Virus record (IMG/VR): IMGVR_UViG_3300026442_000101
Length of the DNA stretch: 64,000 bases
Source: a virus
Taxonomy: Duplodnaviria > Caudoviricetes
Strand: one strand, 5' to 3'
A model generated the notes under the pieces. That model ran no database searches. It was not told the DNA's origin and saw only the letters and a program-made list of their open reading frames with translations. Both the position numbers and the translations under genes were made by a program. Shown here in pieces: positions 15,135 through 54,519 of this stretch; positions within the stretch are counted from its first letter, which is position 1; every line of letters begins with the position of its first letter.

Positions 15135-15135
15135 C

Positions 15136-15186: not shown

Positions 15187-15189
15187 CGC

Positions 15190-24770: not shown

Positions 24771-24777
24771 GTCATAG

Positions 24778-25302
24778 ATGGAAACCACCATGTCTGAAAC
24801 GCTACGGTTATTGAAGTTCGATCCGGCCGTGGCATTGCTGATCATGGCCAACAATCAACTCAACACTAACCTGATGCCTCAGTACGCTGAGGTTAGTGCG
24901 CCCACTGCGCTTGACGAGCTTCTAACCAGCGTGGTGATCACCACGCATCCGTCTAATGACGATGGGATCTATCGCCGCCATACTGGCAGCATTACCTATC
25001 GTTATAATCGGATCCATGTGGCCGACATCTTCGGTACCATGCGGTTGGATCTGACGCCCCCGACTACGGTCGGCGGTGTGATGAAAAACCTCGCGAACGC
25101 TTCTGGTCTCGTTATCACCGATGATGACTTTGAGAACGGGTTGGTCACCGACAACTCATTCATACTGAAGGCTAAGCCTCAGTCACTGCGATGGGTTGGC
25201 GAGACGACAGTGATGCTGAACGACCCAGGTGAGGCAATCCAGCTTTCTGAAGCATTCCCAATCAACATTCTTGACGGCTTGTATCCACCAGTGTTTTCGT
25301 GA
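24778..25302 (+). CDS. Virion structural protein, YxRxD adaptor family
   Basis: YRYNRIHV...SLRWVG; C-terminal LSEAFPINILDGLYP. Confidence 0.6.
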   Translation: METTMSETLRLLKFDPAVALLIMANNQLNTNLMPQYAEVSAPTALDELLTSVVITTHPSNDDGIYRRHTGSITYRYNRIHVADIFGTMRLDLTPPTTVGGVMKNLANASGLVITDDDFENGLVTDNSFILKAKPQSLRWVGETTVMLNDPGEAIQLSEAFPINILDGLYPPVFS

Positions 25303-25325
25303 GATATGGGTGAAGGGGCCATGAG

Positions 25326-26360
25326 ATGGTATCGTACAGCGATCCAAGACTATCTCGTTTCAAGAAGAAGTCGAAAGACCTCTTGATCGATTATATCAAC
25401 TTCAAGAACAACCGAGGTTTCCGGCCTGACCAGATCCTCTTCGGTGTTCCTGAGATGGTAGATGAGAACACCGGCTTGACGCACGTCGAGCTCCAGTTCA
25501 AAGAAGAGCTGGGCTGGAGTCGGGACAAGGCTATCCTTGCCTACAAGCGTCTGGACATCAACCAGCTGATGGGCAATAAGCCAATCGTCCTACATGTGGC
25601 TGAAGAGACCGATGAAGCCATCTACGCGGCTCTCTTAGAGCAGTACGGCTGGTTGCTTGAGCCTGAGCTGGCTGACCTTGAAATCTCCTCTAGGGGCTTC
25701 GAGAGCGCTGCTAGCAACACCAACCTTGGTGGGTTCGAAGTAGAAGACAACAGCGAAGGGGAAGAGGTGATAGTGCCGCCTTACTTGGAGAACAGGAATT
25801 ACATCCTGACCTTCAAGCCTGAGAACCTGATGTACTACGGTGAGGTGAAGATCTTCACTCGCAAGAGCATCGAACTGCTTGGAACCACTATCGACTCACT
25901 CCTCGATCTGCGTGAGTTCTACGCAGACGGTAACTACGATCGTCCATTCGTTGACTTGTTCGGCGACGCTGGTGCGTTCTACGTGACCGATGAGAAGACT
26001 GGCGATAAGACTCGCCGGGCATGGGAAAGCATGCTTTACGAACTGACCGTTGAACAAACCATCGACGTAGGGAGCGGCTTCCCTAAATTGATGCAGCTAC
26101 TCACCGGCGATGAGTGGGTGATCTCTTCCGAGAAGGTTCCGTTTAACCTGAATGACGTAAAGGTCGTTTACAACGGCTTCGTCAGCAAGGACTACAGCGT
26201 ACCCGATCCTGCTTACAACTATGTTGTAGCGCTCGAGCTGGGTCCTCTGTGTGAAAACCTGCAAGGTATCTTCAAGATCGGCTATCGCTTTAGCGACTCG
26301 AGGACCCCAGGTAATCTCCCGTACGACCGTGCGTCCGTTCATCCACTCTTCACTCGTTAA
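25326..26360 (+). CDS. Virion structural protein, YxRxD adaptor family with C-terminal tip domain
   Basis: AYKRLDI; C-terminal YNYVVALELGPLCENLQG pattern shared with array members. Confidence 0.6.
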   Translation: MVSYSDPRLSRFKKKSKDLLIDYINFKNNRGFRPDQILFGVPEMVDENTGLTHVELQFKEELGWSRDKAILAYKRLDINQLMGNKPIVLHVAEETDEAIYAALLEQYGWLLEPELADLEISSRGFESAASNTNLGGFEVEDNSEGEEVIVPPYLENRNYILTFKPENLMYYGEVKIFTRKSIELLGTTIDSLLDLREFYADGNYDRPFVDLFGDAGAFYVTDEKTGDKTRRAWESMLYELTVEQTIDVGSGFPKLMQLLTGDEWVISSEKVPFNLNDVKVVYNGFVSKDYSVPDPAYNYVVALELGPLCENLQGIFKIGYRFSDSRTPGNLPYDRASVHPLFTR

Positions 26361-34365: not shown

Positions 34366-36618
34366 TTAAGGAGTTACGGTGCCGCCGCCGGAGTCGTCGC
34401 CGCCACCGGTCCCACCAGTACCACCGGTACCGCCAGTGCCTGCGTCGGTGCCACCGTCGCCAGCTTCAGCTTCGGTGAGTTTGACACGAAAAGGCAGGGT
34501 CTGCTCCAGGAGCTCAGCAACGCCTTCCACGTTCACCTTGACGATGATCGGGCAGAAGTTGTAGTGCTGGAAGCGCGGCTGCACTACAGCCTCGTTCACT
34601 GGACGGCCATCACGGGTAACCGAGATGGTGGAGACCAGGGTCGGAGTCAGCAGCATTGCGCCGGAGCTCAGAGCGTCGATGCCTTCGCCATCGCGAACGA
34701 TGACCATGTACATGACGTCGCGCAGACGGGCGTCCACGTCCGATTCCAGCTGGTACTTCAGACCAGCACCCAGGGTGCGGCTGTCGCCCGAGATGGTCAT
34801 GAAGCGCTCGATCTGCTTCGAGGTCACCAGACCGAAGCGGAACGGTTGAGCAACTTCACCGCCGTCCATGTAGCGGCAGGCGTTCTCGTAGTTGGTCTTC
34901 TGCAGGATGTCGAAGGCCACCGAACGCAGGGTGTTGACCAGGACCGCAACGCCGTTCTCGACGTTGGCGACGGTTTCCTGCGACTGGGCAGTTTCCATCA
35001 GGTCGACGGTCAGTTCCTGAACGTACGGGTTGACGAGGTAACGGCCGATACCTTCGATAGGCAGGGCGTTGATCTCGAAGTCGCCAGCGGTCATCTCGCC
35101 GCGCAGGCCACCGGTCAGACGCATCAGACGCTCGTGGTAACCGATCAGGGTACCCACAGCTTCGTTGTTGATGTAGCTGGAGACCGCGAAGGTCAGCCAG
35201 TCCATCACGGTCTGGTCACGGTTTTCGCTCAGTGGGTACGGAACGAAGAACGGCGAACGCTGACGGGTCAGCAGACGCTCGGTCACGTTACGGACGTTGA
35301 GCATCAGGCCCAGGTGACGGTGGTTGGTGTTGGTCAGACGAGCGTCCGGCCACCAGCCGACTACCTTCAGTTGTGCCAGGCCATCAACGATGGTCTTGCC
35401 GACGCCGGTGCCCAGCGGGATGCGCTCGCCAGCTTCGTTCTCGATGTACATCACTTCCATGGAAGTGGTGGACACGTCGATGGTGCCGCGCTCAACATCG
35501 CTGTTGCCGTTCAGACGGGTCTTCAGACGGACGCTGTAGCCACCATCTTTGATGGTGGTGAACACCGCACCAGTCAGAGCTTCGCCCTTGTAGTTGGTGG
35601 TGTTCTTGTCGATCTTCAGGGTGGTCAGAACGAAGTTCAGCGACAGTTGACGGCCGCCTTGTTCTGGCAGCTTCACGAAGCGGCTGAATGGCAGACCCTT
35701 GGTGTCGAACACGATGGTGTCGGCGCCCAGGCCCAGGTACACGTCGGCAACGCCGATGTTACGGTCCAGTGCTTCGGTGTAGTCGGCTTGACCAACGCGG
35801 CTGATCGAGTCGGACTGACCCAGGCCGAAGATGTTGACGGTCTTGTTGACCAGCAGAGCCGAGGTCTTGACGGTACGACGACCGGAGATGTAGTCGAACG
35901 GCTCGACAACGGATTCGGCGACGAAGTTGTCTTTCGACACGTCGGCGTAGCCCGGGATCAGCTGGGTGCTGTTGTCGTGCAGTACGGTGTAGTCGATCGC
36001 CGAGTCCATGACGCGGCGCAGGCCGAAGTCGGATTCGGAACCATCCAGCTCGTGGCGCAGGGTGTTCTGCACGTAGAGGTTCGGGATGGTGATGTCGATA
36101 CCGCCTTGCTCAGGAGTCAGTGGAACGGTGCGGTACACCATTTCCATGGCCGGGCCCTGGCGCGCGATCTTGTAGTTCAGACCGATGGAGATCGGCAGGT
36201 GATCGATCAGCGACTGGTTGTCGAAGGATTCCTTCGAGTATTCGCTGTCGAATTCCATGCCGTCGGCGTGAGCGTAACGCACACCAGCGCCCAGCTGCTT
36301 GCTTTCGGTCGAGATCTGCAGGTTCAGCAGGTCGGAAGGACGCTGGGCGAACGAGGCGATGAACGAGGCTGCTGCCATACCGGCCGGGTTCTTGTAACCG
36401 GCTTCGGTGTTGCCTGGCTCGAGGACGCTTTTCAGGTTCTCGGCAACGCTCGACAGATCGACGCGGCTTTCGAAGGAACCTTCTTGCAGCCACTTGATGG
36501 CGTCAGCGCTCTCGGTGGAATAACCACCGGAGTGAATGTTTTCCTGGATCTGGGTAGCCAGCACGCCAGAGCCGGCGCCGAAGTTGCCGCCGGGCTTGTT
36601 GAGTTTGATGACACTCAT
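34366..36618 (-). CDS. Major capsid protein (phiKZ gp120-like)
   Basis: 750 aa, extreme codon bias, N-terminal propeptide with STES/SFES/SKES sites, VQPRFQHYNFCPII C-terminal motif, next to DnaB. Confidence 0.9.
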   Translation of the reverse strand: MSVIKLNKPGGNFGAGSGVLATQIQENIHSGGYSTESADAIKWLQEGSFESRVDLSSVAENLKSVLEPGNTEAGYKNPAGMAAASFIASFAQRPSDLLNLQISTESKQLGAGVRYAHADGMEFDSEYSKESFDNQSLIDHLPISIGLNYKIARQGPAMEMVYRTVPLTPEQGGIDITIPNLYVQNTLRHELDGSESDFGLRRVMDSAIDYTVLHDNSTQLIPGYADVSKDNFVAESVVEPFDYISGRRTVKTSALLVNKTVNIFGLGQSDSISRVGQADYTEALDRNIGVADVYLGLGADTIVFDTKGLPFSRFVKLPEQGGRQLSLNFVLTTLKIDKNTTNYKGEALTGAVFTTIKDGGYSVRLKTRLNGNSDVERGTIDVSTTSMEVMYIENEAGERIPLGTGVGKTIVDGLAQLKVVGWWPDARLTNTNHRHLGLMLNVRNVTERLLTRQRSPFFVPYPLSENRDQTVMDWLTFAVSSYINNEAVGTLIGYHERLMRLTGGLRGEMTAGDFEINALPIEGIGRYLVNPYVQELTVDLMETAQSQETVANVENGVAVLVNTLRSVAFDILQKTNYENACRYMDGGEVAQPFRFGLVTSKQIERFMTISGDSRTLGAGLKYQLESDVDARLRDVMYMVIVRDGEGIDALSSGAMLLTPTLVSTISVTRDGRPVNEAVVQPRFQHYNFCPIIVKVNVEGVAELLEQTLPFRVKLTEAEAGDGGTDAGTGGTGGTGGTGGGDDSGGGTVTP

Positions 36619-41820: not shown

Positions 41821-42369
41821 ATGACCGGTGTAGAACTTCTTATTGGAATGATCACCGAGGCTAACCGGGCTATGCTCGAAGAGGTTAACCTCGTATTGAC
41901 TACAAAGAACATCCGCTTCACCGATCTGTACCCAGGTGAGTGGGAAGGTGGATTCAACACCAAGGTCGGGGCGACTGGTTTCGGTCCAAGACTCGAAGGT
42001 ACCCACGTCTACTATTACAACCGTCTTGACATTCAGCAAGCGTTTGTCGATATCGGCGTGGATGAGGTAGTGGCGCAGGTGGTGGGTGAAGTCACTCCAG
42101 CATCTATCCTTGCGGCACTCGCAACCAAGCACAACCTCTGGCTGCGTCTCGATGACCTGAGCGATTACACCTACGTTGATGGCGTGGCTGTCTTCACCCT
42201 CAAGCCAACGTCCTACGTGTGGCTAGGGACGCTCACCGTCACCGTTGTGAACGAACCCCTGACCTTAGGCGTCATGTTCCCCTTCAACGTCTTAAACGGC
42301 CTCGTTGAGCCTGGTGGCGTTGAGATGACTGATGGCGGGATTTACGAGGAGCTGATCCAGCAGCCGTGA
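41821..42369 (+). CDS. YxRxD adaptor/fibre family member
   Basis: YYYNRLDI; SYVWLG; C-terminal LGVMFPFNVLNGL. Confidence 0.6.
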   Translation: MTGVELLIGMITEANRAMLEEVNLVLTTKNIRFTDLYPGEWEGGFNTKVGATGFGPRLEGTHVYYYNRLDIQQAFVDIGVDEVVAQVVGEVTPASILAALATKHNLWLRLDDLSDYTYVDGVAVFTLKPTSYVWLGTLTVTVVNEPLTLGVMFPFNVLNGLVEPGGVEMTDGGIYEELIQQP

Positions 42370-42411
42370 ATTCTATGACCTTCTGACCATCCATCAACCG
42401 AGACTTCGTGT

Positions 42412-42948
42412 ATGGCCACCGATTACACTAAGAGTGAAGCCGACATCATTGTCGACCTCATTCGTCAGGACAATGGACGCAAGCCACTCACCAGTTCGAT
42501 GGTGACGTTCGGTACGCCAAATGTCTACATCCCTCAGCCCGGGGTGAACCGCAACACTGTCGTGGTGGTCACCGCTCGCCCCGGCCAGACGCTCGAAGGT
42601 AGCCACAGCTACTATTACAACCGGGTACCACTCCCCCAGTTTGTAAACCCCAACGTCCCGGACATCTTGGAATTCGTGATCGAAGGCGAGACCAAGCTGT
42701 CTGAACTTCTCCCTCGAATCAATGAACGCCTCAACATCAACCTTGGCGTGAGTAAGATCTTCGACCGGGACATCCCTGACTTCGAACAGATCGGTTCTGC
42801 TGGAGAAGACATCGAACTTAAGGTGACCTCCAACTCGTTGGTGTTCCTGAGCTCGATCATGATCCACGTCAAACCGGTCCTCATCCCTCTGGGCGCTGTC
42901 ATCAAGACCAAGCGCATGGACGGCCTCACTTACGCACCACCTGTCTGA
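42412..42948 (+). CDS. YxRxD adaptor/fibre family member
   Basis: YYYNRVPL; SLVFLS; LGAVIKTKRMDGLTYAPPV. Confidence 0.65.
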   Translation: MATDYTKSEADIIVDLIRQDNGRKPLTSSMVTFGTPNVYIPQPGVNRNTVVVVTARPGQTLEGSHSYYYNRVPLPQFVNPNVPDILEFVIEGETKLSELLPRINERLNINLGVSKIFDRDIPDFEQIGSAGEDIELKVTSNSLVFLSSIMIHVKPVLIPLGAVIKTKRMDGLTYAPPV

Positions 42949-42950
42949 TG

Positions 42951-42989
42951 CAGCATACATGGGGAGGGCGACCTCCCCTAAATATGCCG
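42951..42989 (+). terminator. Hairpin with GCATA/TATGC flanks
   Basis: cagcata-catggggagg-gcga-cctcccc-taaatatgccg. Confidence 0.7.
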
Positions 42990-43079
42990 TAAATGTTGAC
43001 GAATGCTATAGGGTTGGAGAAGGAAAACCAATTCTATGCATTGGCTATTTATAGCCTATCCCGAAAGCTCTCGAGAGTA

Positions 43080-43631
43080 ATGAAGATGGCCGACAATCTG
43101 ACCCTTGCGCCCAAAGAGGTGCTTTGCGCCCTCATCAACCGCAACAACACCGCACAGGGTGCCGCGCTGACTCCTGAACTGGTAGACTTCGGTCTCCCGA
43201 CTCAGTCCGCCGGCGCCAAGAACACCGACATCACCGTAACCGCCAAAGTAGGCTCCGGTTACACTGGTGCTGAAGTCATCAACTATGACCGCGTCCACCT
43301 GCAGACCGACGTGGTCAACGCCTACGTGGCATCCGCTGCAGGTCGCGACGTAGTCTTCGCTGTTGGCAATGCTGTCAAGATCTCCGACATGATCGCCGAG
43401 ATCAACTCGCGTCTGGCTATCAACCTGACCCCCGACGACTACGTTGACGCCACCCTGCCTGAGTTCACCGGTGTGGCCAACGAAGAGTTGGACGTCCAGG
43501 TTACTGCCAAGGCCGACTCGCTCTGCTACCGCGGCAGCTTCACCTTCAAACTGAAGGCTGAGGACATCCCGCTGAGCGAAGTGATCGTGACCAAGGTCCT
43601 GAACGGCCTGACCTACGCGCCTCCGGCCTGA
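43080..43631 (+). CDS. YxRxD adaptor/fibre family member, probably high-copy
   Basis: NYDRVHL; SLCYRG; LSEVIVTKVLNGLTYAPPA; strong codon bias; own leader and terminator. Confidence 0.65.
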   Translation: MKMADNLTLAPKEVLCALINRNNTAQGAALTPELVDFGLPTQSAGAKNTDITVTAKVGSGYTGAEVINYDRVHLQTDVVNAYVASAAGRDVVFAVGNAVKISDMIAEINSRLAINLTPDDYVDATLPEFTGVANEELDVQVTAKADSLCYRGSFTFKLKAEDIPLSEVIVTKVLNGLTYAPPA

Positions 43632-43644
43632 TGGGTCTCCGATC

Positions 43645-43702
43645 AGACATAAGCACGGACGAGGGGAGGGCACACCCCTCCCCTCGTCCTGTCTGCCCGC
43701 GC
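43645..43702 (+). terminator. Hairpin terminator
   Basis: ggacgaggggaggg-caca-cccctcccctcgtcc. Confidence 0.7.
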
Positions 43703-43715
43703 TAGGAGATGCGTT

Positions 43716-44519
43716 ATGTTTCTGTTACCAGGCGGATCGGAGCAGGCTCTGGTCGACGCCATCAATGCCGTAAACGAACTGCCGACTCCACTTGCCCCCG
43801 ATGACCTGTATCTAGGCAAGTTCACCCCAGTGCCTAACGGCCAGCCGGGTGAGATCTCGCTACCTGTAGTGGCGATGTACAACAGCGACTTCGAAGGCTA
43901 CGTTCGGTTCACGTACAACCGCCTTGATCTCGGCAAGGTCTACGGTACTGTAAAGCCGTCGATCAGACGTGTCGGTTATCCGACCCTCTACAGGTTGCTG
44001 CCGATCATCAACGAGACGCTGGGTCTTTCTCTCACCGAGAACGACGTGGTCGATATCTCGATCACCTGGCTCAACGATAACGAGCAGATCAACATCCCGA
44101 TCGTGGCGAAAGCCGAATCGCCGGTGTATGAAGGTCAGTTCGTAGTCGAGTACGTCCGCGTACGTCCAGAGCTTGCCACCATCGTCTTCCGCGACCTCGA
44201 CGTGCTGAAGCACCCGATCGATCCTGCGCTAGGTAAGAAGTCTATTGCCATGCACACCTGGTCGATGGACTTCACCGATTTCCAATCGGAACTCCTCCTT
44301 CGAAACGGTACGTGGTGGGATATCACTCGCGTCAGGAGAGTGATGGATAAGTTCGGCATGCCTAACTGGCCGCAGGTGCCGACTTCGCCGTGGATTTCTG
44401 TACAGTCCACCAAAGACGTCCCGACTGCCAACAAGTCGTTCACTCACGTTATCGTACAGCGGGATGTCAATCTGCCGGATATGGTTGGCGACGCTTACAT
44501 TCATTTCAACCGTAGCTAA
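43716..44519 (+). CDS. YxRxD family with C-terminal tip domain
   Basis: FTYNRLDL; ends GDAYIHFN. Confidence 0.65.
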   Translation: MFLLPGGSEQALVDAINAVNELPTPLAPDDLYLGKFTPVPNGQPGEISLPVVAMYNSDFEGYVRFTYNRLDLGKVYGTVKPSIRRVGYPTLYRLLPIINETLGLSLTENDVVDISITWLNDNEQINIPIVAKAESPVYEGQFVVEYVRVRPELATIVFRDLDVLKHPIDPALGKKSIAMHTWSMDFTDFQSELLLRNGTWWDITRVRRVMDKFGMPNWPQVPTSPWISVQSTKDVPTANKSFTHVIVQRDVNLPDMVGDAYIHFNRS

Positions 44520-44530
44520 GAGGCTCGCTC

Positions 44531-45361
44531 ATGGCCTTGTATAATGATCCACTCGACACTATCTTGGAGTCGATCAAGACGCTGAACAACGGCGTCTCGC
44601 TGGGGCGTGACGAGTACAACTATTCGGCACCTGGCGTAATCCCAGTAGAAGCCTCCGGCGTCAACACCACCATGACCATTACCTCGCCTGGACCGCAAAG
44701 TCCGTATGCGGGCGAAGTCACGGTGAAACACATCCGCTTGAATCTGGCTGACCTGCTGGTCCTGATCCCTTCTGAAGTAGCGGTGAGCGGCGTGACTACC
44801 ACGCTCGCTTTCGCCCAACAGCTGAACAGCATCTACGGTTTGGCTTTCACTGAAGACGACATCGTCAACGAGCCGGTCGCTCTACCGAACGGTACCGGTC
44901 AGATCACCCTGACCGCTGTAGCTACCTCTCGCGGCTGGATTGGTTCCGTTACCTTCAACGTGGTGCCTGGTCGTCAGAAGCTCGATGAGCTGATCACCGT
45001 CACCCGACTGGATGGCCTGAATTATCCTGACCCGTACGAAGGTAAGCCTTTCGGCAACGCCTACAGCTACTGGCGCGATTATTCGGCGCGCTACAACCTG
45101 CTGGATGTTCTCGTAGCGGGAGAGGGCGGGGATCTGGTGAATGTCAAAGACGCCCTCGTCTACATCACCGGTGACGCGTGGGTTACTGAGGGTTCCAGTC
45201 GTTACTCTCTGGAAGGTACCGAGATTCTCTACGTCGGTCCGACGTCTGGTTACCTTGAGACCAACCAAGCCTACGCCAAAGTCGTGGTGGTGAAATTGGG
45301 TACTGCGTGTCTCGGTTTCTCCGGACGCATGTTCCTCCACTACAACCTGCCAGTTACGTGA
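44531..45361 (+). CDS. YxRxD family with C-terminal tip domain
   Basis: KHIRLNL; LDELITVTRLDGLNYP; ends GRMFLHYN. Confidence 0.65.
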   Translation: MALYNDPLDTILESIKTLNNGVSLGRDEYNYSAPGVIPVEASGVNTTMTITSPGPQSPYAGEVTVKHIRLNLADLLVLIPSEVAVSGVTTTLAFAQQLNSIYGLAFTEDDIVNEPVALPNGTGQITLTAVATSRGWIGSVTFNVVPGRQKLDELITVTRLDGLNYPDPYEGKPFGNAYSYWRDYSARYNLLDVLVAGEGGDLVNVKDALVYITGDAWVTEGSSRYSLEGTEILYVGPTSGYLETNQAYAKVVVVKLGTACLGFSGRMFLHYNLPVT

Positions 45362-45369
45362 GGTGAGAG

Positions 45370-46146
45370 ATGGATAGCGCTGAGAAACTCCGTCAGTTAC
45401 TCAACGACGAGCAGCTGCCACCAAAGCTCTTCACCGAGCGCAACCTGATCATGCGCATCCCGGAAGCCGATGTCGGTGAGGGGTGGAACACCAAGCTGGA
45501 ACTTGAAGGCATCCCGGGTCGCGGCTACTACGGTACCGATGAGGTCTTCTATAAGCGTATCCCGCTTGAGCTGATCCAACGCGTCACACCGCTGCGTTCT
45601 GTCGCTGCCCTGACGCCACAGCTCGTGGTAGACCTCTTCAACGCCAGTACTGGCGCATGGCTGATCCTTGACGACCTTGAGGAGTTCACTCCTCCAGAGT
45701 TGGCTGACGGCGAGAGTGGGTCGGTTACCATCACGGCTAAGTCCACTTCGTTGGGCTTCACCGGTTCGGCGTTGATCAATCTTGAGTACGGTCGTTCGTG
45801 GCTGGATTCCGTAGTCGCATCACGTAACCTCAATGTCCTGACGCATCCCATCAAGGTCGACTATCGAAAGTCGGCCCGCATGCTGACGTGGTCGAAAGAT
45901 TTCACGTCGTTGCGCGATTCCATGCTGCCGGTTAAAGGCATTTATGCCGACTGGGAGATCTTCAGCGCTGCGTGTGGTGAAATGGGTATCCCGACTTGGG
46001 TTCGCGCCAGCTGCACTGATTACCCGACTTCAGCCATACCCGACAGCAACCCCGCTTTCCATCGTGTAGTCATCCAACGAAACGTGGTGAGTGGTGGAAT
46101 GATCGGGGATCTGTACTTCCATTACAATGTCCTCGAAGAGATGTGA
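45370..46146 (+). CDS. YxRxD family with C-terminal tip domain
   Basis: FYKRIPL; SLGFTG; ends GDLYFHYN. Confidence 0.65.
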   Translation: MDSAEKLRQLLNDEQLPPKLFTERNLIMRIPEADVGEGWNTKLELEGIPGRGYYGTDEVFYKRIPLELIQRVTPLRSVAALTPQLVVDLFNASTGAWLILDDLEEFTPPELADGESGSVTITAKSTSLGFTGSALINLEYGRSWLDSVVASRNLNVLTHPIKVDYRKSARMLTWSKDFTSLRDSMLPVKGIYADWEIFSAACGEMGIPTWVRASCTDYPTSAIPDSNPAFHRVVIQRNVVSGGMIGDLYFHYNVLEEM

Positions 46147-46149
46147 CCC

Positions 46150-47097
46150 ATGCCTCTTTACAAAAAGCCCTCGAAAGACTTGGTGTACGACCTCATCAAC
46201 GAGGCGAACCCACAGCTTGAAATTCCAGCCTCGGCACTTAACGTGTCGCTCGGTGTGCCGGCAGCCATTGCCGGTACGTCCTGGCCGGCAAACAACACCA
46301 ACATCGTTCTATCCCCAGCGCCAGGCAGCGGCGACTTCATCGGTCGCCAGACCGTCAGCTACCGTCGCCTGGATCTGTCGGCCTTGTTCCGTGGCCAGAC
46401 CATCCTGATCAAGAAATTCAAGTCTACCGCCAGCTCCAGCTCGGGCACTTTGATGTACACCGTCTATCAGCTGTTGGCGGACATCAACTCTCGGTACGGG
46501 ATGAACCTGACCGAAGACGACGTCAACAATGCCAACATCCTACGGGGCAGTACCCTGGAAGACGGGCAGTACACCACTACCGTTACAGTGAGCACCAAAG
46601 CGACCTCGCTCGGTTATACCGGCAGCTTCTCTCTGAAGTGGCTGAACACCAAGCAGTCGTTGGAAGACATGATTACTGTCCGCACGCTGGGCGGTCGTCT
46701 CTTCCCGGGCGGTAACGACTTCAGTGGGGCGCACAAAGAAATTCTCGCCATGGCCGGTTACGGTATCGATGGCAGCGATGCACTTCGTCGAACCAGCTCG
46801 ACCTGGAACGGTACGGCTACGTCAGGAGTCGTCGCCGCAGCGCACCAAGTGTGGCTGTCCGCCATGCTGGATGATATCAACATCAAGTGCGGCACCAGCT
46901 ATAAATGCACCAACGGCGGATCGTACCTGACCACCAACGAGTTCTTCGGCATGAACTACACGATCGTAGTCCTGCCGCACGCCAACTACCCGGACGCGAA
47001 TACGACAGACTTCAACCGTCTGTTCATCATCACCGCGCCGGCGAACTGTCCATGGGCGGTTGGTGATCTGTACGTCCACGCCAACTACCCGTTCTAA
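46150..47097 (+). CDS. YxRxD family with C-terminal tip domain
   Basis: SYRRLDL; SLGYTG; ends GDLYVHANY. Confidence 0.65.
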   Translation: MPLYKKPSKDLVYDLINEANPQLEIPASALNVSLGVPAAIAGTSWPANNTNIVLSPAPGSGDFIGRQTVSYRRLDLSALFRGQTILIKKFKSTASSSSGTLMYTVYQLLADINSRYGMNLTEDDVNNANILRGSTLEDGQYTTTVTVSTKATSLGYTGSFSLKWLNTKQSLEDMITVRTLGGRLFPGGNDFSGAHKEILAMAGYGIDGSDALRRTSSTWNGTATSGVVAAAHQVWLSAMLDDINIKCGTSYKCTNGGSYLTTNEFFGMNYTIVVLPHANYPDANTTDFNRLFIITAPANCPWAVGDLYVHANYPF

Positions 47098-47110
47098 GGA
47101 TAGGTGAACC

Positions 47111-47986
47111 ATGAGTTTCCTCACTCCGTCCAGACAGGACATTTTGAACTACGTCAACTTGGCGAACAGTACCTCGTACGTGTTGGCTGACGTGACGTTC
47201 GGTACGCCTGCGCCGACCGAAGGTAGTTGGCAGGGCAACGTTACCGATAAGAACACCGTCGTCCGCATCACTGCGGCTGCAGGCGGTACGTTCCAGGGCA
47301 GCGCGGTTGTCGTTTACGATCGCCTCAATCTGGCGAGCCTTGCGAACATCAAGGGTTTCAAGCCCCGCGTTACCGCGCCAGCGACCACGCACGATCTACT
47401 CGCGTCGATCAAGTACTTCACCGGCTTGAGCTTGTCGGTCAATGACATCGAAGCTACCCCAATGACCGACAATGGCAACGGCACCTATTCCGGTACCCTG
47501 ACTGCCAAAGCTGGATCGTGGGGATGGTACGGGAGTCTGCCGATCACTGTGCAGAAGGGCGGCGATCGCCTGAGCGACATCATTACCGATGTTACGCTCG
47601 ACGGCCTGAACTACCCGACGACGTCGGATCAGGAAATCTACGGGGCACTCTACATGTACCCGTACGACATGACCCCATACTTCAACACTCTGATCGATCT
47701 GGAAGACGGCGTAGCGCTTACCACCGAGCAGGTCAATGCCTTGGTGTTGGCGTTCAACGCGGTGGACGTTTCGTCCGGTAAGGGTCTGTGGACTGGTAGC
47801 GGTGCTGCCACTACCTGGACGCTGGGCGGTGCCAAGTGTGTGCGTAACGGCCTCAACGGCTCCGACCTGCCAACCAACCCTGGCTACAAATACGTGGCTG
47901 TGATCGAATTGCGTGCTGACGTCACCACTCCTCGCGGCGTGATGTACCTGCACTACAACGACTACACCGATCCTAACGCCGTTTAA
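47111..47986 (+). CDS. YxRxD family with C-terminal tip domain
   Basis: VYDRLNL; LSDIITDVTLDGLNYP; ends GVMYLHYN. Confidence 0.65.
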   Translation: MSFLTPSRQDILNYVNLANSTSYVLADVTFGTPAPTEGSWQGNVTDKNTVVRITAAAGGTFQGSAVVVYDRLNLASLANIKGFKPRVTAPATTHDLLASIKYFTGLSLSVNDIEATPMTDNGNGTYSGTLTAKAGSWGWYGSLPITVQKGGDRLSDIITDVTLDGLNYPTTSDQEIYGALYMYPYDMTPYFNTLIDLEDGVALTTEQVNALVLAFNAVDVSSGKGLWTGSGAATTWTLGGAKCVRNGLNGSDLPTNPGYKYVAVIELRADVTTPRGVMYLHYNDYTDPNAV

Positions 47987-47991
47987 CATCC

Positions 47992-48018
47992 AGCGGGTCC
48001 CTTCGGGGACCCTTCGCT
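47992..48018 (+). terminator. UUCG hairpin between array sub-blocks
   Basis: gggtccc-ttcg-gggaccc. Confidence 0.6.
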
Positions 48019-48030
48019 AAGGAGCGAGTT

Positions 48031-49056
48031 ATGTTACGAGCTATGCTCGGCTTCGACCACTGTCCCCGGAACGTGGCCAACAGCTGGATTGCCAACTCCG
48101 GCTATTCGATCGAACGCTATTACCTGGACACTGGTGTCGGTCGTGACATCATCGTCGATAACAATGCCAAGTTGTCCATCTCTGCCGGCAACACTGCTGG
48201 CCGTACCTTGCACGTCCTGAACCTCAGTCAGTTCCTGGTCCCGAACGCAGCCAACAGCTTTGTATTCGGCTATCGGGCGAAGATGGAGACGGCCGGCGGT
48301 GCGGTTGGTGACTGGGCGCTATGGGTGGATTACCAGCGTGGTAACACTGGCGCAACCATCCTCAACCTCGGCCATATTTTCGGCACTGTTACGGCCGGTG
48401 TCGAGGCGTACATCGAGATCGTCATCCTGACGTCCGGCGCTGTAGAGTTCTGGAAGGACGGTGTGCTGGTCAGTTACAACGCTACTCTTTTGAGCGGCAT
48501 GATTGCTCAACTGAAAGCTGGTAACTTCTCCCTCGTCTTGCTGGCAGCTACCGCCAACACCCCTGCCGTGATTTCGTATCGCGACTTCTACTTGCTCGAT
48601 GACGTGCCTGGCGATGGTTTCACTTCCCGTCTTGGTTCCCGCGTCGTACGACCGGTCACTATTGACGCTGTTCCGGTGTCTACCGGCTGGAGCGCAACGA
48701 ACTCGCAGACTCCGCTGGAGATCCTCAGTGCACCGATCGATACCGCGAGTCCAGGTCTTCTGACCTCGTCCGTGGGCGCTCAGGCGCTTGAGGTGAGTTT
48801 GAAGTCGACCATCCCGGCCAACACCAAGGTGGAAGCGATTCAGCTCATGGCGGGCGCACTAGGCAGCACTGCGGCTTCTCGCCTAGGTTTCTCTCTGAAG
48901 GATGCTAACGGGGTTACTTCTCGTCGAGTAGTCACGCCAAGCACCACCCTCAAGTACGGTTTGCCGACCGGCTGCTGGACTCGTAGCCCGAGTGGACAAG
49001 AGTGGACCAACGCCACCATCGATAGCACGTCGCTGGTGATCACCCCTGATCTGTGA
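48031..49056 (+). CDS. Lectin/LamG-like beta-sandwich virion protein (paralog 1)
   Basis: YIEIVI...F; YRDFYLLDD...RLG...VRPV; W....ID...L.ITP shared with 50959 and 52087. Fold is inferred. Confidence 0.5.
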   Translation: MLRAMLGFDHCPRNVANSWIANSGYSIERYYLDTGVGRDIIVDNNAKLSISAGNTAGRTLHVLNLSQFLVPNAANSFVFGYRAKMETAGGAVGDWALWVDYQRGNTGATILNLGHIFGTVTAGVEAYIEIVILTSGAVEFWKDGVLVSYNATLLSGMIAQLKAGNFSLVLLAATANTPAVISYRDFYLLDDVPGDGFTSRLGSRVVRPVTIDAVPVSTGWSATNSQTPLEILSAPIDTASPGLLTSSVGAQALEVSLKSTIPANTKVEAIQLMAGALGSTAASRLGFSLKDANGVTSRRVVTPSTTLKYGLPTGCWTRSPSGQEWTNATIDSTSLVITPDL

Positions 49057-49066
49057 GTAATCGGCT

Positions 49067-50095
49067 ATGACGATTTCCGTTCGTAACGCGCTGGGTTATG
49101 CATTAACCCGGCCAGCCGGGACCAACACTCTGCGTAACGTCATTGGTTACGCGCTGACGTTACCGGCAGCTGATGCAGTCGTGAAAGGCGGCGACGTAAA
49201 TCTGCTGGCTTCTCGCGAGCAGATGTTGTACCAGCTCGTTGTCAAGAGCAACCCCAAGATGGCCAGCTACGCCGCTACCGACATTGCCTTCAGTAGCGTC
49301 ACTGCCATGAACGCCACTATAGCTCCAAGCGGCGGCTCGTCGCTGATGCCGGATACTTCGGCGATCGTGAAGGCAGCAGGCTCCGGTAGTATGATCGGAC
49401 AGCAGACCGTCTATTACCGCCGCATCGACATCAGCAAACTGTTCAAGGGCAGGACGCTGACGTTGAAGGTGCCCTACGCCATGGGCACGACTGCGATTAC
49501 GAGGGCTCAGGCTCTAGACTTCGCTGCTCAGCAGTTTGGCATCAGGATCCCTACCGATGACGTTAACTTCACGTCTTGGTCGTTCCCTGCAAACAATAGC
49601 CTCAGTATAGTCGGAACGAGTCCTTGTTTCAAAGGGACGCTGATCATCAGGGTTGAGCGCGATAAACAGCTCCTGAGTTCGGTGGTTGGGGATCGAACCT
49701 TTGCCGGCCGGTCTTGGCCAGATGCGATGATCGACGTGGGCGATGGAACCAAGCCGCAAGGCGAACTGCTGTTGTACGACATCGATTACAGTTCCCAGAA
49801 ATCGGTATTGAACAACCTATCTTCTGGCACAGTTCCTGACGTCAACACCACCGGGAGTCTTGCTGCTGCGATGAACGCAGTACCTAACAACTCAGGGTAC
49901 GCGTTTGGTAATCAGCGGTGCGATACCCCGCCTGGGATCTTACTGGCGCGAGCGACACGGTATACGCTGCCTAACGCAGCAATTCCCGAGGCCAACTCGG
50001 CGCAATACAATCGCTGTGTTGTTATCGAAAACGTCGATTACCCGCAGTATCCGTCGTGGTGGGCGGGGAAGATCATCCTTCATTACAATGTCTAA
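49067..50095 (+). CDS. YxRxD family with two N-terminal RNxxGYALT repeats
   Basis: VRNALGYALTRPA and LRNVIGYALTLPA; YYRRIDI; ends GKIILHYN. Confidence 0.65.
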   Translation: MTISVRNALGYALTRPAGTNTLRNVIGYALTLPAADAVVKGGDVNLLASREQMLYQLVVKSNPKMASYAATDIAFSSVTAMNATIAPSGGSSLMPDTSAIVKAAGSGSMIGQQTVYYRRIDISKLFKGRTLTLKVPYAMGTTAITRAQALDFAAQQFGIRIPTDDVNFTSWSFPANNSLSIVGTSPCFKGTLIIRVERDKQLLSSVVGDRTFAGRSWPDAMIDVGDGTKPQGELLLYDIDYSSQKSVLNNLSSGTVPDVNTTGSLAAAMNAVPNNSGYAFGNQRCDTPPGILLARATRYTLPNAAIPEANSAQYNRCVVIENVDYPQYPSWWAGKIILHYNV

Positions 50096-50106
50096 CGGGG
50101 CAACCT

Positions 50107-50601
50107 ATGTCAGTTTATACGGAATCCAGGGCTGATGTGATCGACCTGTTCCTGAAAAAGACTGGCTTGTCGATCCCGACGGCTGACCTCATCGTCAGCC
50201 GTCCGAAGGTGAACGATGATCCAGCTCGCCCTACAACCAACACCCAGGTCAAGTTTACGGTGGCGGATACCAACGCCAGCTACAGTGGTAGCGAGGTATT
50301 CCACTACAATCGGCTAGACTTGGCCAGGTTGGCAAACTACCCAGCGCCGGACTACCCGCCGATTACTAACGTCGGGGTGTCGGTATACGCGCTGCTAACG
50401 CAAATCAAAAACGCCATGGGGTTATCCTTCACCCCTGACGATTTGGTGGAGACGTTCGTGACCGGTACCGAAGGTAACACGTCCATCCTCCTCAAAGCCA
50501 AGACCACTTCGCTGGGATGGATCGGTGAGTTCAACCTACCGCTCGGTGTTCCGCCGCTGCTGAGCAGCATCTTCGTCAAAGACTTCGTTCTCTGGAGCTA
50601 G
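50107..50601 (+). CDS. YxRxD family, adaptor-only half
   Basis: HYNRLDL; SLGWIG; ATG at 50107. Confidence 0.65.
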   Translation: MSVYTESRADVIDLFLKKTGLSIPTADLIVSRPKVNDDPARPTTNTQVKFTVADTNASYSGSEVFHYNRLDLARLANYPAPDYPPITNVGVSVYALLTQIKNAMGLSFTPDDLVETFVTGTEGNTSILLKAKTTSLGWIGEFNLPLGVPPLLSSIFVKDFVLWS

Positions 50602-50603
50602 TA

Positions 50604-50948
50604 ATGGCTAACGATATCAATTGGGTCCGTTACGGATTCCACATCAACGACCCGGCCGTCAAGCCTGTCGCTGAGCAGTTCGAGACCGGTGAAATCGTCG
50701 ATATCGAGAAAGGTCAGTTGCTCGCTGATCTGATGAACGAGATCGATAAGAAGGAAGGTAAGGGTCAGTGGGTCAGTAATGACGAACTGCCCGGCAACTT
50801 CAACTTCAACGGCTGTTACGTCGACCACCGCGGGCCGAACAGCTTCAACTATCCGACCAAGGGTACCATGCAGAACGTGTTGATTCTGTCGTTCCCCTCC
50901 TCGGCTGTACAGCCGGTTGGTCGCATCTACATTCCCTACAACGACTAG
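50604..50948 (+). CDS. Stand-alone tip domain of the array family
   Basis: 114 aa ending NVLILSF...VGRIYIPYND, like the fused tip domains. Confidence 0.6.
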   Translation: MANDINWVRYGFHINDPAVKPVAEQFETGEIVDIEKGQLLADLMNEIDKKEGKGQWVSNDELPGNFNFNGCYVDHRGPNSFNYPTKGTMQNVLILSFPSSAVQPVGRIYIPYND

Positions 50949-50958
50949 GAGTTGAGTC

Positions 50959-52044
50959 ATGCCTATTCTTTCTGTTGAAGGGATGTTGGATGCCCTCCCC
51001 GGCGCCGGTCACAACAGTGCGAGCGTCGGTACGGCATTGCTTGGCAGTCCATACCTGATCTTCGCAAACTCTGCCGCCACCTTCAGTGAGGTGACCATCT
51101 CCAAGGATGTGAACGGTTGGCTGAACACCCGCACAGGCCCAGCCACCGGCACCACGACGCAGACCACCAAGTACTGCGGCATCAGCCGACTCCTTTCTGA
51201 CTACACGACGATTGCGGCGAGCACGTACCTTTACGGCGGGGTGCGTCTGAAGGTATTCGTCAACGCCACCCAGCTTCCAATCGTAACGCTCCATGACCGG
51301 AAGAGTCTTCCGAATACCCCCTCGAACCAGGTGGTCATCTTCAACTATCAGGATATCCCGGGCGGTGTGGTGGCTGGTCAAGAGTACTACTTCGAATGGG
51401 CCATCGATATGGCTGCCGGTAAGGTGTATCGTCGCCTTGATGGCAATCGTATTGCCGACGTTACCCTATCGGCCGCTAACATCACTGCGCTACTAGCGCA
51501 GGGGTTTGGTATCTGCTACGGCTTTGCGGCTGGTTACTCCGTGGCGATGTCCACTGTGGTCGGATACAGCATCAAAGACATCTATGTCGGCGAGAAAGTG
51601 GCTGGCGAGACTGTCGACTGGCTGGGGCCTCGCTCTGTGGTGCCTGTCGACTTCAACGCGTTGGATTCGCAGTGGCTTGCCAGTGCCGGCACACCGCTCA
51701 GCGCACTGCAGACCCCGATCAACGATAGCGCTTCGCTAAACGCGCCGTCGGTCACTTCCGATGTGGCGGGTACCCCTGGTACGTTCACCATGAACACCCC
51801 AGCGGTTACCGGCATTATCAATGCCGTAACGCTCACAGGCCTGGCCAAGCGGCAAGCAGGTTCGTTGGGCGGTCTGAAGGGCGCTATTAAGTCTGGCAAC
51901 AACCAGATCGATGGTCAGCCCAAGAACCTGGATCTTACCTACACCTACGTCACCCTCGGTCTGTATCCTAAGGCCCCAGGTAACGTGTCGTGGACTAAGG
52001 AACTACTGGGTTCGCTCAGCACCATCGTCACGCCGAGTAACTAA
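50959..52044 (+). CDS. Lectin/LamG-like beta-sandwich virion protein (paralog 2)
   Basis: YYFEWAID; IKDIYVG...WLGPRSVVPV; WT...L..L...VTP. Confidence 0.5.
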   Translation: MPILSVEGMLDALPGAGHNSASVGTALLGSPYLIFANSAATFSEVTISKDVNGWLNTRTGPATGTTTQTTKYCGISRLLSDYTTIAASTYLYGGVRLKVFVNATQLPIVTLHDRKSLPNTPSNQVVIFNYQDIPGGVVAGQEYYFEWAIDMAAGKVYRRLDGNRIADVTLSAANITALLAQGFGICYGFAAGYSVAMSTVVGYSIKDIYVGEKVAGETVDWLGPRSVVPVDFNALDSQWLASAGTPLSALQTPINDSASLNAPSVTSDVAGTPGTFTMNTPAVTGIINAVTLTGLAKRQAGSLGGLKGAIKSGNNQIDGQPKNLDLTYTYVTLGLYPKAPGNVSWTKELLGSLSTIVTPSN

Positions 52045-52086
52045 ACATCGCACGGGGAGTGGCGACACTCCCTACGAGGATTTCCC

Positions 52087-53223
52087 ATGCGCGGATTCAA
52101 CATCATCGGTCTCAATCACCTCCAGAAAGGCAAGCTCGGTGACATGAACGCTTGCTACGGATTTGGTTCCAGTCAATGGGAGCCGGTCGCCATTCGCAAC
52201 GCGACGAGCCAGGGTCAAGTTGGGTTGTACGTCAATACTGCCAACAAGCTGGTGTTTGCAGTAAACGACACGGTCGGAACAACCAAGGCCGGCTGCACTC
52301 AAATCAAGCTGTCTAAATTGATCGATAACGCAGCCGACGTCGCTGAGCTTACCATCGGTATGCGTCTTGATGCTGCGCCGTATACGCCGTCCATCACCAG
52401 CGCTTATCCACTGGTCTGCCTTTATGCGATACAGCCCGCTGTCGGCGCTACCAACGGACCACAATCCACTCTCGTGATACAGCCTTCTGCTAACGTCGCT
52501 GCAGCGTCTGGTTACTACGAGTTCGTATTCACCCTAACCGCCGTAGGTGCCGGCGGTGGTAGGATCGACATCTATCTGGATAAAGTCTTCCAGGGCTACA
52601 CCACGTTGGCATCCACGATCGGTCGAACCAACATTGGTAACTACTACCTCAGCTTCGGTCGTATGGCTATGGTTTGCTATAACAGCACGACTCCTGGGCT
52701 CGGTGGTGCGGATACGGTGCTCTTCACCATGGAGGACATTTACTGCGTGTACGACACCGTCGTTCAAGATGGTAGTACCCGTAAAGGTCCGATGAAGATC
52801 CGCCCTCTGGACGTCGATACCAACAACGATGTCGCGTGGCAGACTTCGGACGGCAGTGCTCGTGCAGCGTGCTTGAACCTCGCCGATCACCACGGCACTA
52901 TCTTGACGCCGTATGTCCTGTCCCCACTCGACATGACGGCCATCAAACTCAGACGCGTCACTACGCCGATCAGCGACAGCGACAAGATCCTCTGCATTGC
53001 TGGAGCGACTAGCGCTTCTCGTGACGTAGGGCAGTCAGCGAACATCTCGGCTAAGTGGAAGTTCAACTCTTCGGAATCGGCAGCTACCAGCTATCTGCCC
53101 ACTTCCGGAGACTACACCACGCAGAAGGACTTCCCGCTAGTCACTCTCCAGGCCATGCCGGACGGCTCACCCTTCACCAAGGCCAAGTTGGCTGACCTCG
53201 AGATGGTCCTGACTCCGGTATAA
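52087..53223 (+). CDS. Lectin/LamG-like beta-sandwich virion protein (paralog 3)
   Basis: GYYEFVF; MEDIYCVYD...RKGPMKIRPL; FT...L.DL..VLTP. Confidence 0.5.
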   Translation: MRGFNIIGLNHLQKGKLGDMNACYGFGSSQWEPVAIRNATSQGQVGLYVNTANKLVFAVNDTVGTTKAGCTQIKLSKLIDNAADVAELTIGMRLDAAPYTPSITSAYPLVCLYAIQPAVGATNGPQSTLVIQPSANVAAASGYYEFVFTLTAVGAGGGRIDIYLDKVFQGYTTLASTIGRTNIGNYYLSFGRMAMVCYNSTTPGLGGADTVLFTMEDIYCVYDTVVQDGSTRKGPMKIRPLDVDTNNDVAWQTSDGSARAACLNLADHHGTILTPYVLSPLDMTAIKLRRVTTPISDSDKILCIAGATSASRDVGQSANISAKWKFNSSESAATSYLPTSGDYTTQKDFPLVTLQAMPDGSPFTKAKLADLEMVLTPV

Positions 53224-53233
53224 CGAGGTCGTC

Positions 53234-53944
53234 ATGCCGCAAATCAAACTTAGGAACGCCCCACTCTACGTGGGTATGGTGGGCGATGCGCGAGTTAAGT
53301 TGCGTAACGCCCCGATGTATGTGGCGGTTCAGAGCCCACCTGTGGTAGAGTTCCGTAGCGTCAGGGCCTACGCTTTGACTCAACCAGCGAACACCACGCA
53401 GTTACGTAATGTTCGGATGTACGCGCTGGTGCAGATGGCGCCGCTTACCTATCTTGCCAAGGCAGGCGCGGTAGCTCTCCTCGAGGCTATCAACAAGGAA
53501 CATTCCAAAACCCTGACTGCGGAGCAGGTGTATTTCGAGAATCCCCAACCTCTGGCTGGTGATGATCACTTCAACTCGCAGATCACCATGAAGCCACATG
53601 CGGTGTTCCCGTATTCTGGACAAATGGTGTTCCGGTATAACCGATTCGTCATCGCTGACTTCTTCGCAGGTAAGGATACCAGTACCCTGCCAGCAGGTAG
53701 TCAGACCACCATCCACGGACGACTGGCGGCTATCAATAGTACGTTTGGGTGCTCGTTATCGACGACTGATGTCGTGAACGCTCCAGTGGCAGCTAATACC
53801 ACAGGCCTCACGCTCACCATCGCTACCACGAGTATTCTATTCGTACCAGGTAGTAAGATGTTCATCGGACAGTCGTTACCAGCCGACGATCTCTCGGTCA
53901 AGGCTCCGGTAACCGATCTCGGTGGTTTTGATGCAGAAGGCTAA
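53234..53944 (+). CDS. YxRxD family with four N-terminal LRNxxxY repeats
   Basis: KLRNAPLYV, KLRNAPMYV, FRSVRAYAL, LRNVRMYAL; RYNRFVI; ends VTDLGGFDAEG. Confidence 0.65.
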   Translation: MPQIKLRNAPLYVGMVGDARVKLRNAPMYVAVQSPPVVEFRSVRAYALTQPANTTQLRNVRMYALVQMAPLTYLAKAGAVALLEAINKEHSKTLTAEQVYFENPQPLAGDDHFNSQITMKPHAVFPYSGQMVFRYNRFVIADFFAGKDTSTLPAGSQTTIHGRLAAINSTFGCSLSTTDVVNAPVAANTTGLTLTIATTSILFVPGSKMFIGQSLPADDLSVKAPVTDLGGFDAEG

Positions 53945-53949
53945 GTAGA

Positions 53950-53986
53950 CAGCATACAGCCCCGGCGCGAGCCGGGGCTGTATGTC
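53950..53986. terminator. Bidirectional terminator with GCATA/TATG flanks
   Basis: gcatacagccccggc-gcga-gccggggctgtatg. Confidence 0.85.
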
Positions 53987-53994
53987 GCTTGGGA

Positions 53995-54519
53995 TTAACC
54001 CTCGGCGTCGAAGCCGTCCAGGTCAGTCACGGAAGCTGCTTCGTTCAGAGGAACGTCAGCGTCCGGTACGGACAGAACAGCAGCGAAGGTGCCGGTGTAC
54101 AGCAGGCTGCCAGCGTCGGCAACAACATCGGCCGAACCGTTGGTGTCTTCGTCAACCGGGCGAACGATGTTCGACAGGCTGATTTCCGATTCGATCAGAC
54201 CCAGCGCGGTAGCGACCTTGGTCAGGACCTGTGCGTCGGTATCGCCTTCAGCGATGACCACAGGGATGGCCTTGGCAGTAGCGATACCTTCGCCAGCAGT
54301 CAGCGCCCGACGGGTGTAGCTGAAGGTCTGGGTGCCGCTGAAGCCTTGGTTGTCGACAGCGGTGTAGGTGATGCTGGTGTTGCGACCACCAGTGCCAGCT
54401 TCGCTGACAACCGAGCCAGGAGTGATCTGGGCGGCGGTAGCGTTCAGGCTGGGGTTAGCAGCGTTGATCAGTGCCAGGACGTTAGCCGCGGCAGTGATGG
54501 CGATATTGACTTTAGCCAT
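53995..54519 (-). CDS. YxRxD family member on opposite strand, probably high-copy
   Basis: SYTRRAL; SLLYTG; ends VTDLDGFDAEG; strong codon bias. Confidence 0.65.
   Translation of the reverse strand: MAKVNIAITAAANVLALINAANPSLNATAAQITPGSVVSEAGTGGRNTSITYTAVDNQGFSGTQTFSYTRRALTAGEGIATAKAIPVVIAEGDTDAQVLTKVATALGLIESEISLSNIVRPVDEDTNGSADVVADAGSLLYTGTFAAVLSVPDADVPLNEAASVTDLDGFDAEG

Follow-up and report, generated by a model that had tools for sequence, protein, structure and literature searches.

The locus at positions 48031-53944 of the IMG/VR virus record IMGVR_UViG_3300026442_000101 raises the question of how the filaments of DUF7941 proteins, proposed in 2026 to form a host-finding "fibre cloud" in chimalliviruses, gain their binding heads. 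The window denotes here the whole stretch of DNA that was analyzed, 64,000 nucleotides (nt) in length. At this locus, one and two genes for free lectin-like proteins precede, respectively, two DUF7941 proteins (hereafter adaptors), whose N-termini carry two and four copies of a 17-residue unit. Our analysis suggests that each of these units probably docks one protomer of a free lectin-like protein, with each lectin being loaded twice in the clade of this phage. Such strand docks would add a non-covalent and countable loading rule to the filaments. The features concerned, with lengths in amino acids (aa), are as follows.

48031..49056, plus strand: lectin-like protein A, 341 aa, ConA-like jelly roll and C-terminal beta-sandwich (AlphaFold2, Foldseek, family profile)
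49067..50095, plus strand: adaptor A, 342 aa, two units and a full DUF7941 module (PF25613, 105.8 bits, residues 49-341; phrog_1037)
49073..49174, plus strand: two type A units, core RNxxGYALT, residues 3-36 of adaptor A (motif scan, profile, complex model)
50959..52044, plus strand: lectin-like protein B, 361 aa, paralog of the 48031 product (BLASTP E 3e-9; lectin profile E 2e-118)
52087..53223, plus strand: lectin-like protein C, 378 aa, weak colinear paralog (lectin profile E 2e-102)
53234..53944, plus strand: adaptor BC, 236 aa, four units, a DUF7941 N-domain, and a linker (PF25613, 63.7 bits, residues 74-213; phrog_2935, phrog_1037)
53243..53344, plus strand: distal pair of units, core LRNAPxYV, putative address of lectin C (pair without counterpart in the related locus L005, which lacks lectin C)
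53345..53446, plus strand: proximal pair of units, core RxVRxYAL, putative address of lectin B (pair kept in L005 together with a lectin B ortholog)

All five open reading frames (ORFs) and the unit cores named in the original prediction are present, and a six-frame scan agreed with its statement that the repeats are confined to the two adaptors. Both adaptors exceeded the gathering score of PF25613 (27 bits). The match of 49067 covered profile positions 7-275 of 276 and that of 53234 positions 4-146; the full DUF7941 model is present in the former, and the N-domain and linker only in the latter. The unit cores are RNALGYALT and RNVIGYALT in adaptor A, and LRNAPLYV, LRNAPMYV, RSVRAYAL, and RNVRMYAL in adaptor BC. 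All six units share the consensus h-R-N-h-x-x-Y-A-L, where h is a hydrophobic residue, and follow one another with an exact period of 51 nt (17 residues). They constitute one tandem repeat family with sub-types, in two and four copies, and are not unrelated motifs. Thus, the two pairs on adaptor BC, described at first as distinct, do differ in their cores (LRNAPxYV and RxVRxYAL) but are sub-types of a single 17-residue repeat. The pattern R[NS][AV]xxY[AV][LV] gave four hits in the six-frame scan of the window, all inside the two adaptors, at a rough chance expectation of ~0.1 hits, and the looser pattern RNxxxY additionally caught both APxYV units. The unit motif was not found in the remaining 128,000 six-frame residues of the window.

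At the nucleotide level, Tandem Repeats Finder detected no DNA repeat at the units, the pair members were ~50% identical, and the shared residues were mostly encoded by different codons; the repeat is old and has been maintained at the protein level. The similarity of units within pairs was 0.57-0.77, versus 0.25-0.45 between pairs, a separation reached in 0 of 5000 shuffles. Both members of a pair also change together: both units of type c lack the Arg, both units of type d read HAL, and both type C units of locus L003 read YAA. Among orthologs of adaptor A, the units are the best-conserved part of the protein, and the unit core residues are invariant even though these orthologs are only 32-49% identical overall.

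The products of 48031, 50959, and 52087 are colinear, highly diverged paralogs, all three consisting of a ConA-like jelly roll and a beta-sandwich at the C-terminus. The AlphaFold2 model of the 48031 product had a mean predicted local distance difference test (pLDDT) score of 86.6, and a Foldseek search of the PDB matched its N-domain to ConA-like jelly rolls, namely BoNT Hc-N, the calreticulin lectin domain, TtX122B, and the alginate lyase Aly36B. These matches had E values of ~1e-6 to 1e-5 and a probability of 1.0, with only the N-domain aligned and template modeling (TM) scores, normalized by target, of ~0.39-0.50 for the single-domain targets. Pfam at E values up to 0.1 yielded no family for 48031 or 50959 and a chance-level hit only for 52087. 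By sequence, none of the three proteins belonged to a curated lectin or LamG family, and no sequence relative was found in the PDB. "Lectin-like" is used as a description of the predicted fold only, and carbohydrate binding is putative. The N-termini of the lectin-like proteins carry a conserved GFDH motif, which forms part of the predicted groove described below. A profile of the lectin family retrieved 1523 cluster representatives at E values up to 1e-3 among 1.84 billion proteins. In the BFVD, the full two-domain fold matched uncharacterized or "virion structural" proteins of unrelated smaller phages (Serratia JS26, Achromobacter AchV4, Cronobacter JC01, Providencia Kokobel1, and Vibrio VpV262) with TM scores of 0.6-0.78, often with several paralogs per phage.

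The distribution of units was compared among 16 loci, where lectin modules were counted when they lay directly upstream of, or were fused to, a DUF7941 protein. The numbers of modules and units per DUF7941 protein were as follows.

Window, L003, L004, L006, L007, and L011: one module with two units, and two modules with four units
L012: one module with two units, and two modules with four units; in addition, a DUF7941 protein that has a degenerate extension but no lectin
L005: one module with two units, twice
L001: one module with two units, four times; one of the adaptors is also fused to a lectin N-domain
L013: no module and no units, then one module with two units three times
L015: no module and no units, and two modules with four units
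FLC9 (L002): no module and no units (gp319), and six modules with eight units (gp316-311, then gp310)
L014: one module with one unit (fusion), one module with one unit (free), and one module with one unit (fusion)
L018: one module with one unit (fusion), and one module with three units
L017: one module with three units; downstream, two further lectin genes precede the contig end
L016: at least two modules with three units (contig truncated)

The 17-residue period was kept in all cases but one, the first unit of L016 being offset by 16. A profile of the unit was also scanned over 728 ORFs from the window and 12 other loci, of which 11 were from related phages and one was the SPN3US array. Apart from two weak antisense hits, it matched only DUF7941 proteins that are preceded by or fused to a lectin; no units were found on ~150 other DUF7941 ORFs, including those of the SPN3US array. 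Across the loci, the one rule that held throughout was the restriction of units to places with an adjacent or fused lectin module, and the 2:1 ratio is confined to the wider clade of the window. The co-variation of repeat number with lectin gene number that had been predicted therefore held within this clade (two units for one gene and four for two in seven genomes, and the loss in L005) but not in other lineages. As a general code, the strict 2:1 rule was rejected, since L014 has a 1:1 ratio, L017 and L018 have three units after one lectin, and FLC9 has eight units after six lectin modules. Counting only the FLC9 lectins with a free C-terminus, of which four would give eight units, is a post hoc rescue, and gp314 and gp315 contain the full module.

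In locus L005, lectin C is missing together with precisely the distal pair of units, and the lectin B ortholog is the only lectin kept in its second block. Lectin A is missing from L013, L015, and FLC9, and the adaptor A orthologs of these three start without the 40-residue repeat region, with the remainder of the protein retained; the sister locus L001 has both lectin A and the repeat region. In natural fusions, of which two were found in L014 and one in L018, a full lectin module is followed by one unit and then by DUF7941. The fusions of L001 and L013 run from a lectin N-domain through two units to DUF7941.

The complex of two copies of lectin A with residues 1-48 of adaptor A was predicted with a six-row alignment for each. 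The interaction prediction score from aligned errors (ipSAE) was 0.86 versus 0.29 for the best of three controls; of 80 solved complexes, 58 reached the mark used, as did 2 of 110 mismatched pairs, a calibration that holds only roughly for this case. The runs shared at least 90% of contacts, and the partner pLDDT was at least 70. No solved complex resembling the model was found, and its pass is therefore not a recall of a known structure. In the lowest-error contacts, unit 1 met copy 2 through residues 10-13, and unit 2 met copy 1 through residues 27-31, so that Y11-L13 and Y28-L30 of the adaptor occupy equivalent sites on the two lectin copies in the model. Both units contacted lectin residues 5-7, 187, 204-209, and 267-272 (among them 7, 206-209, and 269-271), which take in the conserved GFDH start of the family, Ala269, and the GPRxVxP linker. 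The predicted interface, ~21% of residues, contained eight of the 19 most conserved lectin positions (permutation p 0.02). The AlphaFold2 model of the fusion P0144 (lectin c, one unit, and a DUF7941 N-domain) showed the unit as an ordered strand (E325-337, pLDDT ~78-90) that comes directly after the last strand of the lectin, with a linker strand longer than that in the free lectin model. Linker segment 203-208 formed a strand only when the unit was present, as in the P0144 model (E184-195), with the free lectin model already confident (pLDDT 86.6). The P0144 model thus agrees, indirectly, with the predicted complex.

Taken together, the co-occurrence, the matched losses, the fusions, and the complex model uphold the proposal that the repeats serve lectin docking, and on these computational grounds the units are most likely docking elements for the adjacent lectin-like proteins. 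Because the fusions carry one unit per lectin module and the model uses equivalent sites on two copies, and because the members of a pair stay alike and change together, we infer that one unit holds one protomer. The 2:1 ratio would therefore represent double loading, and the 1:1 and 3:1 ratios seen elsewhere would be allowed. FLC9, if divided as 2+2+1+1+1+1, would also fit, although this division is post hoc.

The array encodes DUF7941 proteins, a module reported to form head-to-tail filaments anchored at the peripheral baseplate. Under the proposed mechanism, each unit would form a short beta-strand that reads hydrophobic-R-polar-hydrophobic-x-x-aromatic-hydrophobic-hydrophobic and leads into a Pro-rich turn. 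The strand would insert into the seam where the jelly roll and the beta-sandwich of one free lectin copy meet (predicted site, residues 5-10, 204-209, 267-272, and 335-340). There it is predicted to contact four strands of the lectin, namely the N-terminal one with GFDH, the linker strand with GPRxVxP, the one around Ala269, and the last. With one protomer per unit and two similar units per lectin gene, every lectin in this clade would be loaded in duplicate: two copies of lectin A on adaptor A and, on adaptor BC, two of lectin C at the distal pair and two of lectin B at the proximal pair. The lectin-like proteins may serve in host recognition on the filaments.

Several points weigh against this mechanism. 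All of the evidence for binding is predicted or computational, and the small custom alignments and the duplicated chain differ from the setup in which the complex prediction was calibrated; supplying two lectin copies may itself favor one unit per copy. The free lectin model folds confidently without the strand. The counts vary (1:1 in L014, three units per lectin in L017 and L018, and eight units for six lectin modules in FLC9), neighbors inherited together as cassettes would also co-vary, and a repeat-like but degenerate extension is present on a DUF7941 protein of L012 (15741-16349) that lacks its own lectin. In addition, the location of DUF7941 proteins, at the head or the baseplate, is disputed between studies: the family was called head-associated, since it is present in tailless particles of SPN3US (PMC5694885), whereas the DUF7941 proteins of phiKZ and, according to the Goslar preprint, of Goslar were placed at the peripheral baseplate (PMC13250141; bioRxiv 10.64898/2026.04.21.720040).

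Other explanations of the units were weighed on the same evidence. Two units might instead bind one lectin monomer jointly, for instance on two of its faces or in the form of a hairpin, in which case the 2:1 count would reflect one site and not two protomers. The ratio is indeed strict in about ten genomes, and in the complex model each lectin copy has ~70 interface residues, so that the copies may sandwich both units. Nevertheless, we consider this arrangement unlikely: the natural fusions and the L014 adaptor have exactly one unit per lectin module, the lowest-error contacts place each unit core on equivalent residues of a different copy, and it does not accommodate L017 and L018, where one lectin is followed by three units.

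Alternatively, the units may bind no lectin and instead attach the adaptor to the next DUF7941 subunit or elsewhere in the virion, the co-variation being a product of recombination cassettes. The array is mosaic (P0030 joins an adaptor-c-like N-domain with an adaptor-A-like C-domain), DUF7941 proteins are reported in the Goslar preprint to bind each other via linkers (bioRxiv 10.64898/2026.04.21.720040), and the identity of lectin A correlates with that of the type A units between genomes (r 0.75), which would be expected from cassettes too. Yet L005 and L013 keep the adaptor body and have lost only the units that match the missing lectin, the unit lies exactly between lectin and DUF7941 in the fusions, units were never found by the profile scan on DUF7941 proteins without lectins, and the complex model passed its controls; we therefore regard the alternative as quite improbable. 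That the units are a flexible, functionless spacer or the decaying remnant of a duplication agrees with the single degenerate pair of copies without a lectin in L012 (15741-16349) but is scarcely credible given the exact 17-residue period conserved from the window phage to FLC9, the invariant core residues in orthologs only 32-49% identical overall, and the different codons that encode the shared residues.

If the units do dock lectin protomers one by one, their sub-types might also determine which lectin is bound. The lectin orthogroups A, x, c, and d retain their own unit types on separate adaptors (L001, L013), on a shared adaptor (L012, L015), and in fusions (L014). Where an adaptor is shared, type c is the best match for its distal pair, and the lectin gene that adjoins the adaptor is of the c type. 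When unit types were checked against lectin orthogroups, three of four pairs agreed and one was ambiguous; no unit type could be assigned to the proximal pair of L012. Locus L005 maps the proximal pair of the window to lectin B, and the distal pair would thus, by elimination, belong to lectin C. A mirror-tree comparison separated type A (r 0.75 versus -0.14 and -0.23) and did not separate B from C. These sequence patterns are suggestive of type-specific addressing. We hold only tentatively the stronger view, somewhat doubtful at present, that each 17-residue unit works as a portable address specific to one type, with its sequence picking the lectin paralog and the number of units setting the copies. 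If so, a DUF7941 filament subunit would be a programmable scaffold with a load readable from its N-terminus and rewritable by gain, loss, and fusion of units, as between L001, L012, L014, L015, and FLC9.

The phage itself is uncultured. The gene at 34366-36618 encodes a phiKZ-type major head protein, and virion proteins, a polymerase, and helicases were also matched in the window (PHROG). Only distant relatives were found by tblastn, namely Burkholderia phage FLC9 and the SPN3US, Erwinia, Cronobacter, and Salmonella jumbo phages. A megablast search of the array region against phages gave no match, tblastn with the lectin as query matched FLC9 alone, and searches for related loci seeded by the adaptor or lectin c yielded no new loci. 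The source of the window is an uncultured chimallivirus-like (phiKZ/SPN3US-type) jumbo phage.

The lectins and adaptors lie within a run of DUF7941 (PF25613) paralogs at 41821-54519, which match phrog_1037 and phrog_2935 ("virion structural protein"). The remaining members of the run are as follows.

41821..47986, plus strand: eight DUF7941 paralogs of the upstream array, lacking both repeats and lectin partners
50107..50601, plus strand: DUF7941 N-domain-only protein, 164 aa, no repeats (PF25613, 72.5 bits, profile positions 1-163)
50604..50948, plus strand: small protein, 114 aa, C-terminal part of DUF7941 only (DUF7941 profile 198-285; phrog_1037 207-283)
53995..54519, minus strand: convergent DUF7941 N-domain protein, 174 aa, last gene of the array, without repeats (PF25613, 58.6 bits)

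The product of 47111-47986 is orthologous to SPN3US gp143, which belongs to "paralog family B" (PMC5694885). A profile of array members matched phiKZ gp127 (PHIKZ127; PDB 9xqd chain 0, E 4.2e-20), the solved chain of which (PDB 9XQD) sits in the outer peripheral baseplate (PMC13250141). As set out in the Goslar preprint, the DUF7941 module consists of an N-domain, a linker, and a C-domain; the proteins bind one another via the linkers and form head-to-tail filaments, as purified Goslar gp22 does; and a baseplate-anchored "fibre cloud" is proposed, with some members fused to carbohydrate-binding, hydrolase, or leucine-rich repeat (LRR) domains (bioRxiv 10.64898/2026.04.21.720040). Such oligomers or filaments at the peripheral baseplate are known only from electron microscopy of Goslar gp22 and from the phiKZ map. 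The genes at 50107-50601 and 50604-50948 resemble a split DUF7941, with an N-domain gene directly followed by a C-domain gene, and a similar pair is kept at the equivalent place in all relatives, including FLC9 gp318/gp317. The position of the gene at 53995-54519 is likewise conserved in all relatives. The C-terminal ends of the 53234-53944 product (VTDLGGFDAEG) and of the minus-strand 53995-54519 product (VTDLDGFDAEG) are near-identical, and LxGF forms the C-terminal end of many N-domain-only members in relatives; by the Goslar model, this shared peptide may be a linker that docks onto the next DUF7941 N-domain. Three further DUF7941-type genes, one with two N-domain-like stretches, were found at 23817-26360, 16 kb upstream of the main array.

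Traces of rearrangement were observed in the relatives. P0030 (L014:10001-11839) is a mosaic of an A-type lectin module, an A-type unit, an N-domain nearest to that of the L001 adaptor c, and an adaptor-A-like C-domain, which points, at the sequence level, to recombination inside the array. The N-terminal extension of L012:15741-16349, ~35 residues long, resembles two decayed units (ITSVSQFVL and CRVVDSAFLM) 17 residues apart and may be a relic left after the loss of a d-type lectin. Just past the array of L005, which lacks lectin C, a LAGLIDADG/helicase-type gene and a GIY-YIG gene (11714-15507) are possible mobile elements near the rearranged end. In more distant relatives, carriers and lectin modules bear extra LamG-like and glycine-rich C-terminal domains (FLC9 gp310, gp314, gp315, gp307, and gp308; L016:2840-4351; L015:10989-12356); covalent and non-covalent heads would therefore be combined on one protein.

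If correct, the docking mechanism would name a function for a large unannotated family (1523 cluster representatives), and the head composition of uncultured jumbo phages would become readable from sequence. The unit would also be a very small natural docking tag, with possible use in protein display.

Among known systems, the closest to the adaptors are Goslar gp22, gp23, gp86, gp92, and gp161, phiKZ gp126 and gp127, and the SPN3US "paralog family B," which all belong to the same DUF7941 family. The DUF7941 section of the Goslar preprint mentions neither free lectin partners nor N-terminal repeats, and the words "lectin," "concanavalin," and "strand complementation" do not occur in its main text (bioRxiv 10.64898/2026.04.21.720040). 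Filaments bearing heads of sugar-binding type follow the same idea there; however, as that preprint describes them, the binding domains are fused C-terminally to DUF7941, whereas those described here are separate, or sometimes fused N-terminally, and would be held by N-terminal 17-residue strands. The DUF7941 part of the system is known, and tandem strand docks with free lectin partners appear to be undescribed.

In chaperone-usher pili, donor-strand complementation is achieved by the N-terminal extension of a subunit, which completes the Ig-like fold of the next subunit. The units likewise lie on an N-terminal extension with alternating hydrophobic residues and are predicted to insert as beta-strands into a partner beta-sandwich. 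However, the two systems share no homology, the free lectin model is confident without the strand (with linker segment 203-208 a strand only when a unit is present), and the strands here are in tandem, each for a separate partner copy; the resemblance is thus a likeness in the proposed way of working and not membership. Branched receptor-binding complexes of phages, such as the K1-5/SP6 adaptor with two tailspikes, CBA120 TSP1-4, G7C gp63.1/gp66, and the anchor-branch systems of Klebsiella phages, share with the proposed assembly a virion-bound protein that carries several alternative binding proteins and a gene order that mirrors assembly. In those phage systems, the docking element is located on the N-terminus of the binding protein. 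Here, the units lie on the DUF7941 carrier, where they would act as tandem addresses, and the lectin-like proteins, whose N-termini bear the different GFDH motif, would supply the groove. The scaffoldin of the cellulosome carries tandem cohesins, domains of 150 residues, each of which binds one dockerin-bearing enzyme. The units are 17-residue strands and have no sequence or fold relation to cohesins, but in both cases the number and type of tandem docking units would set the number and kind of partners.

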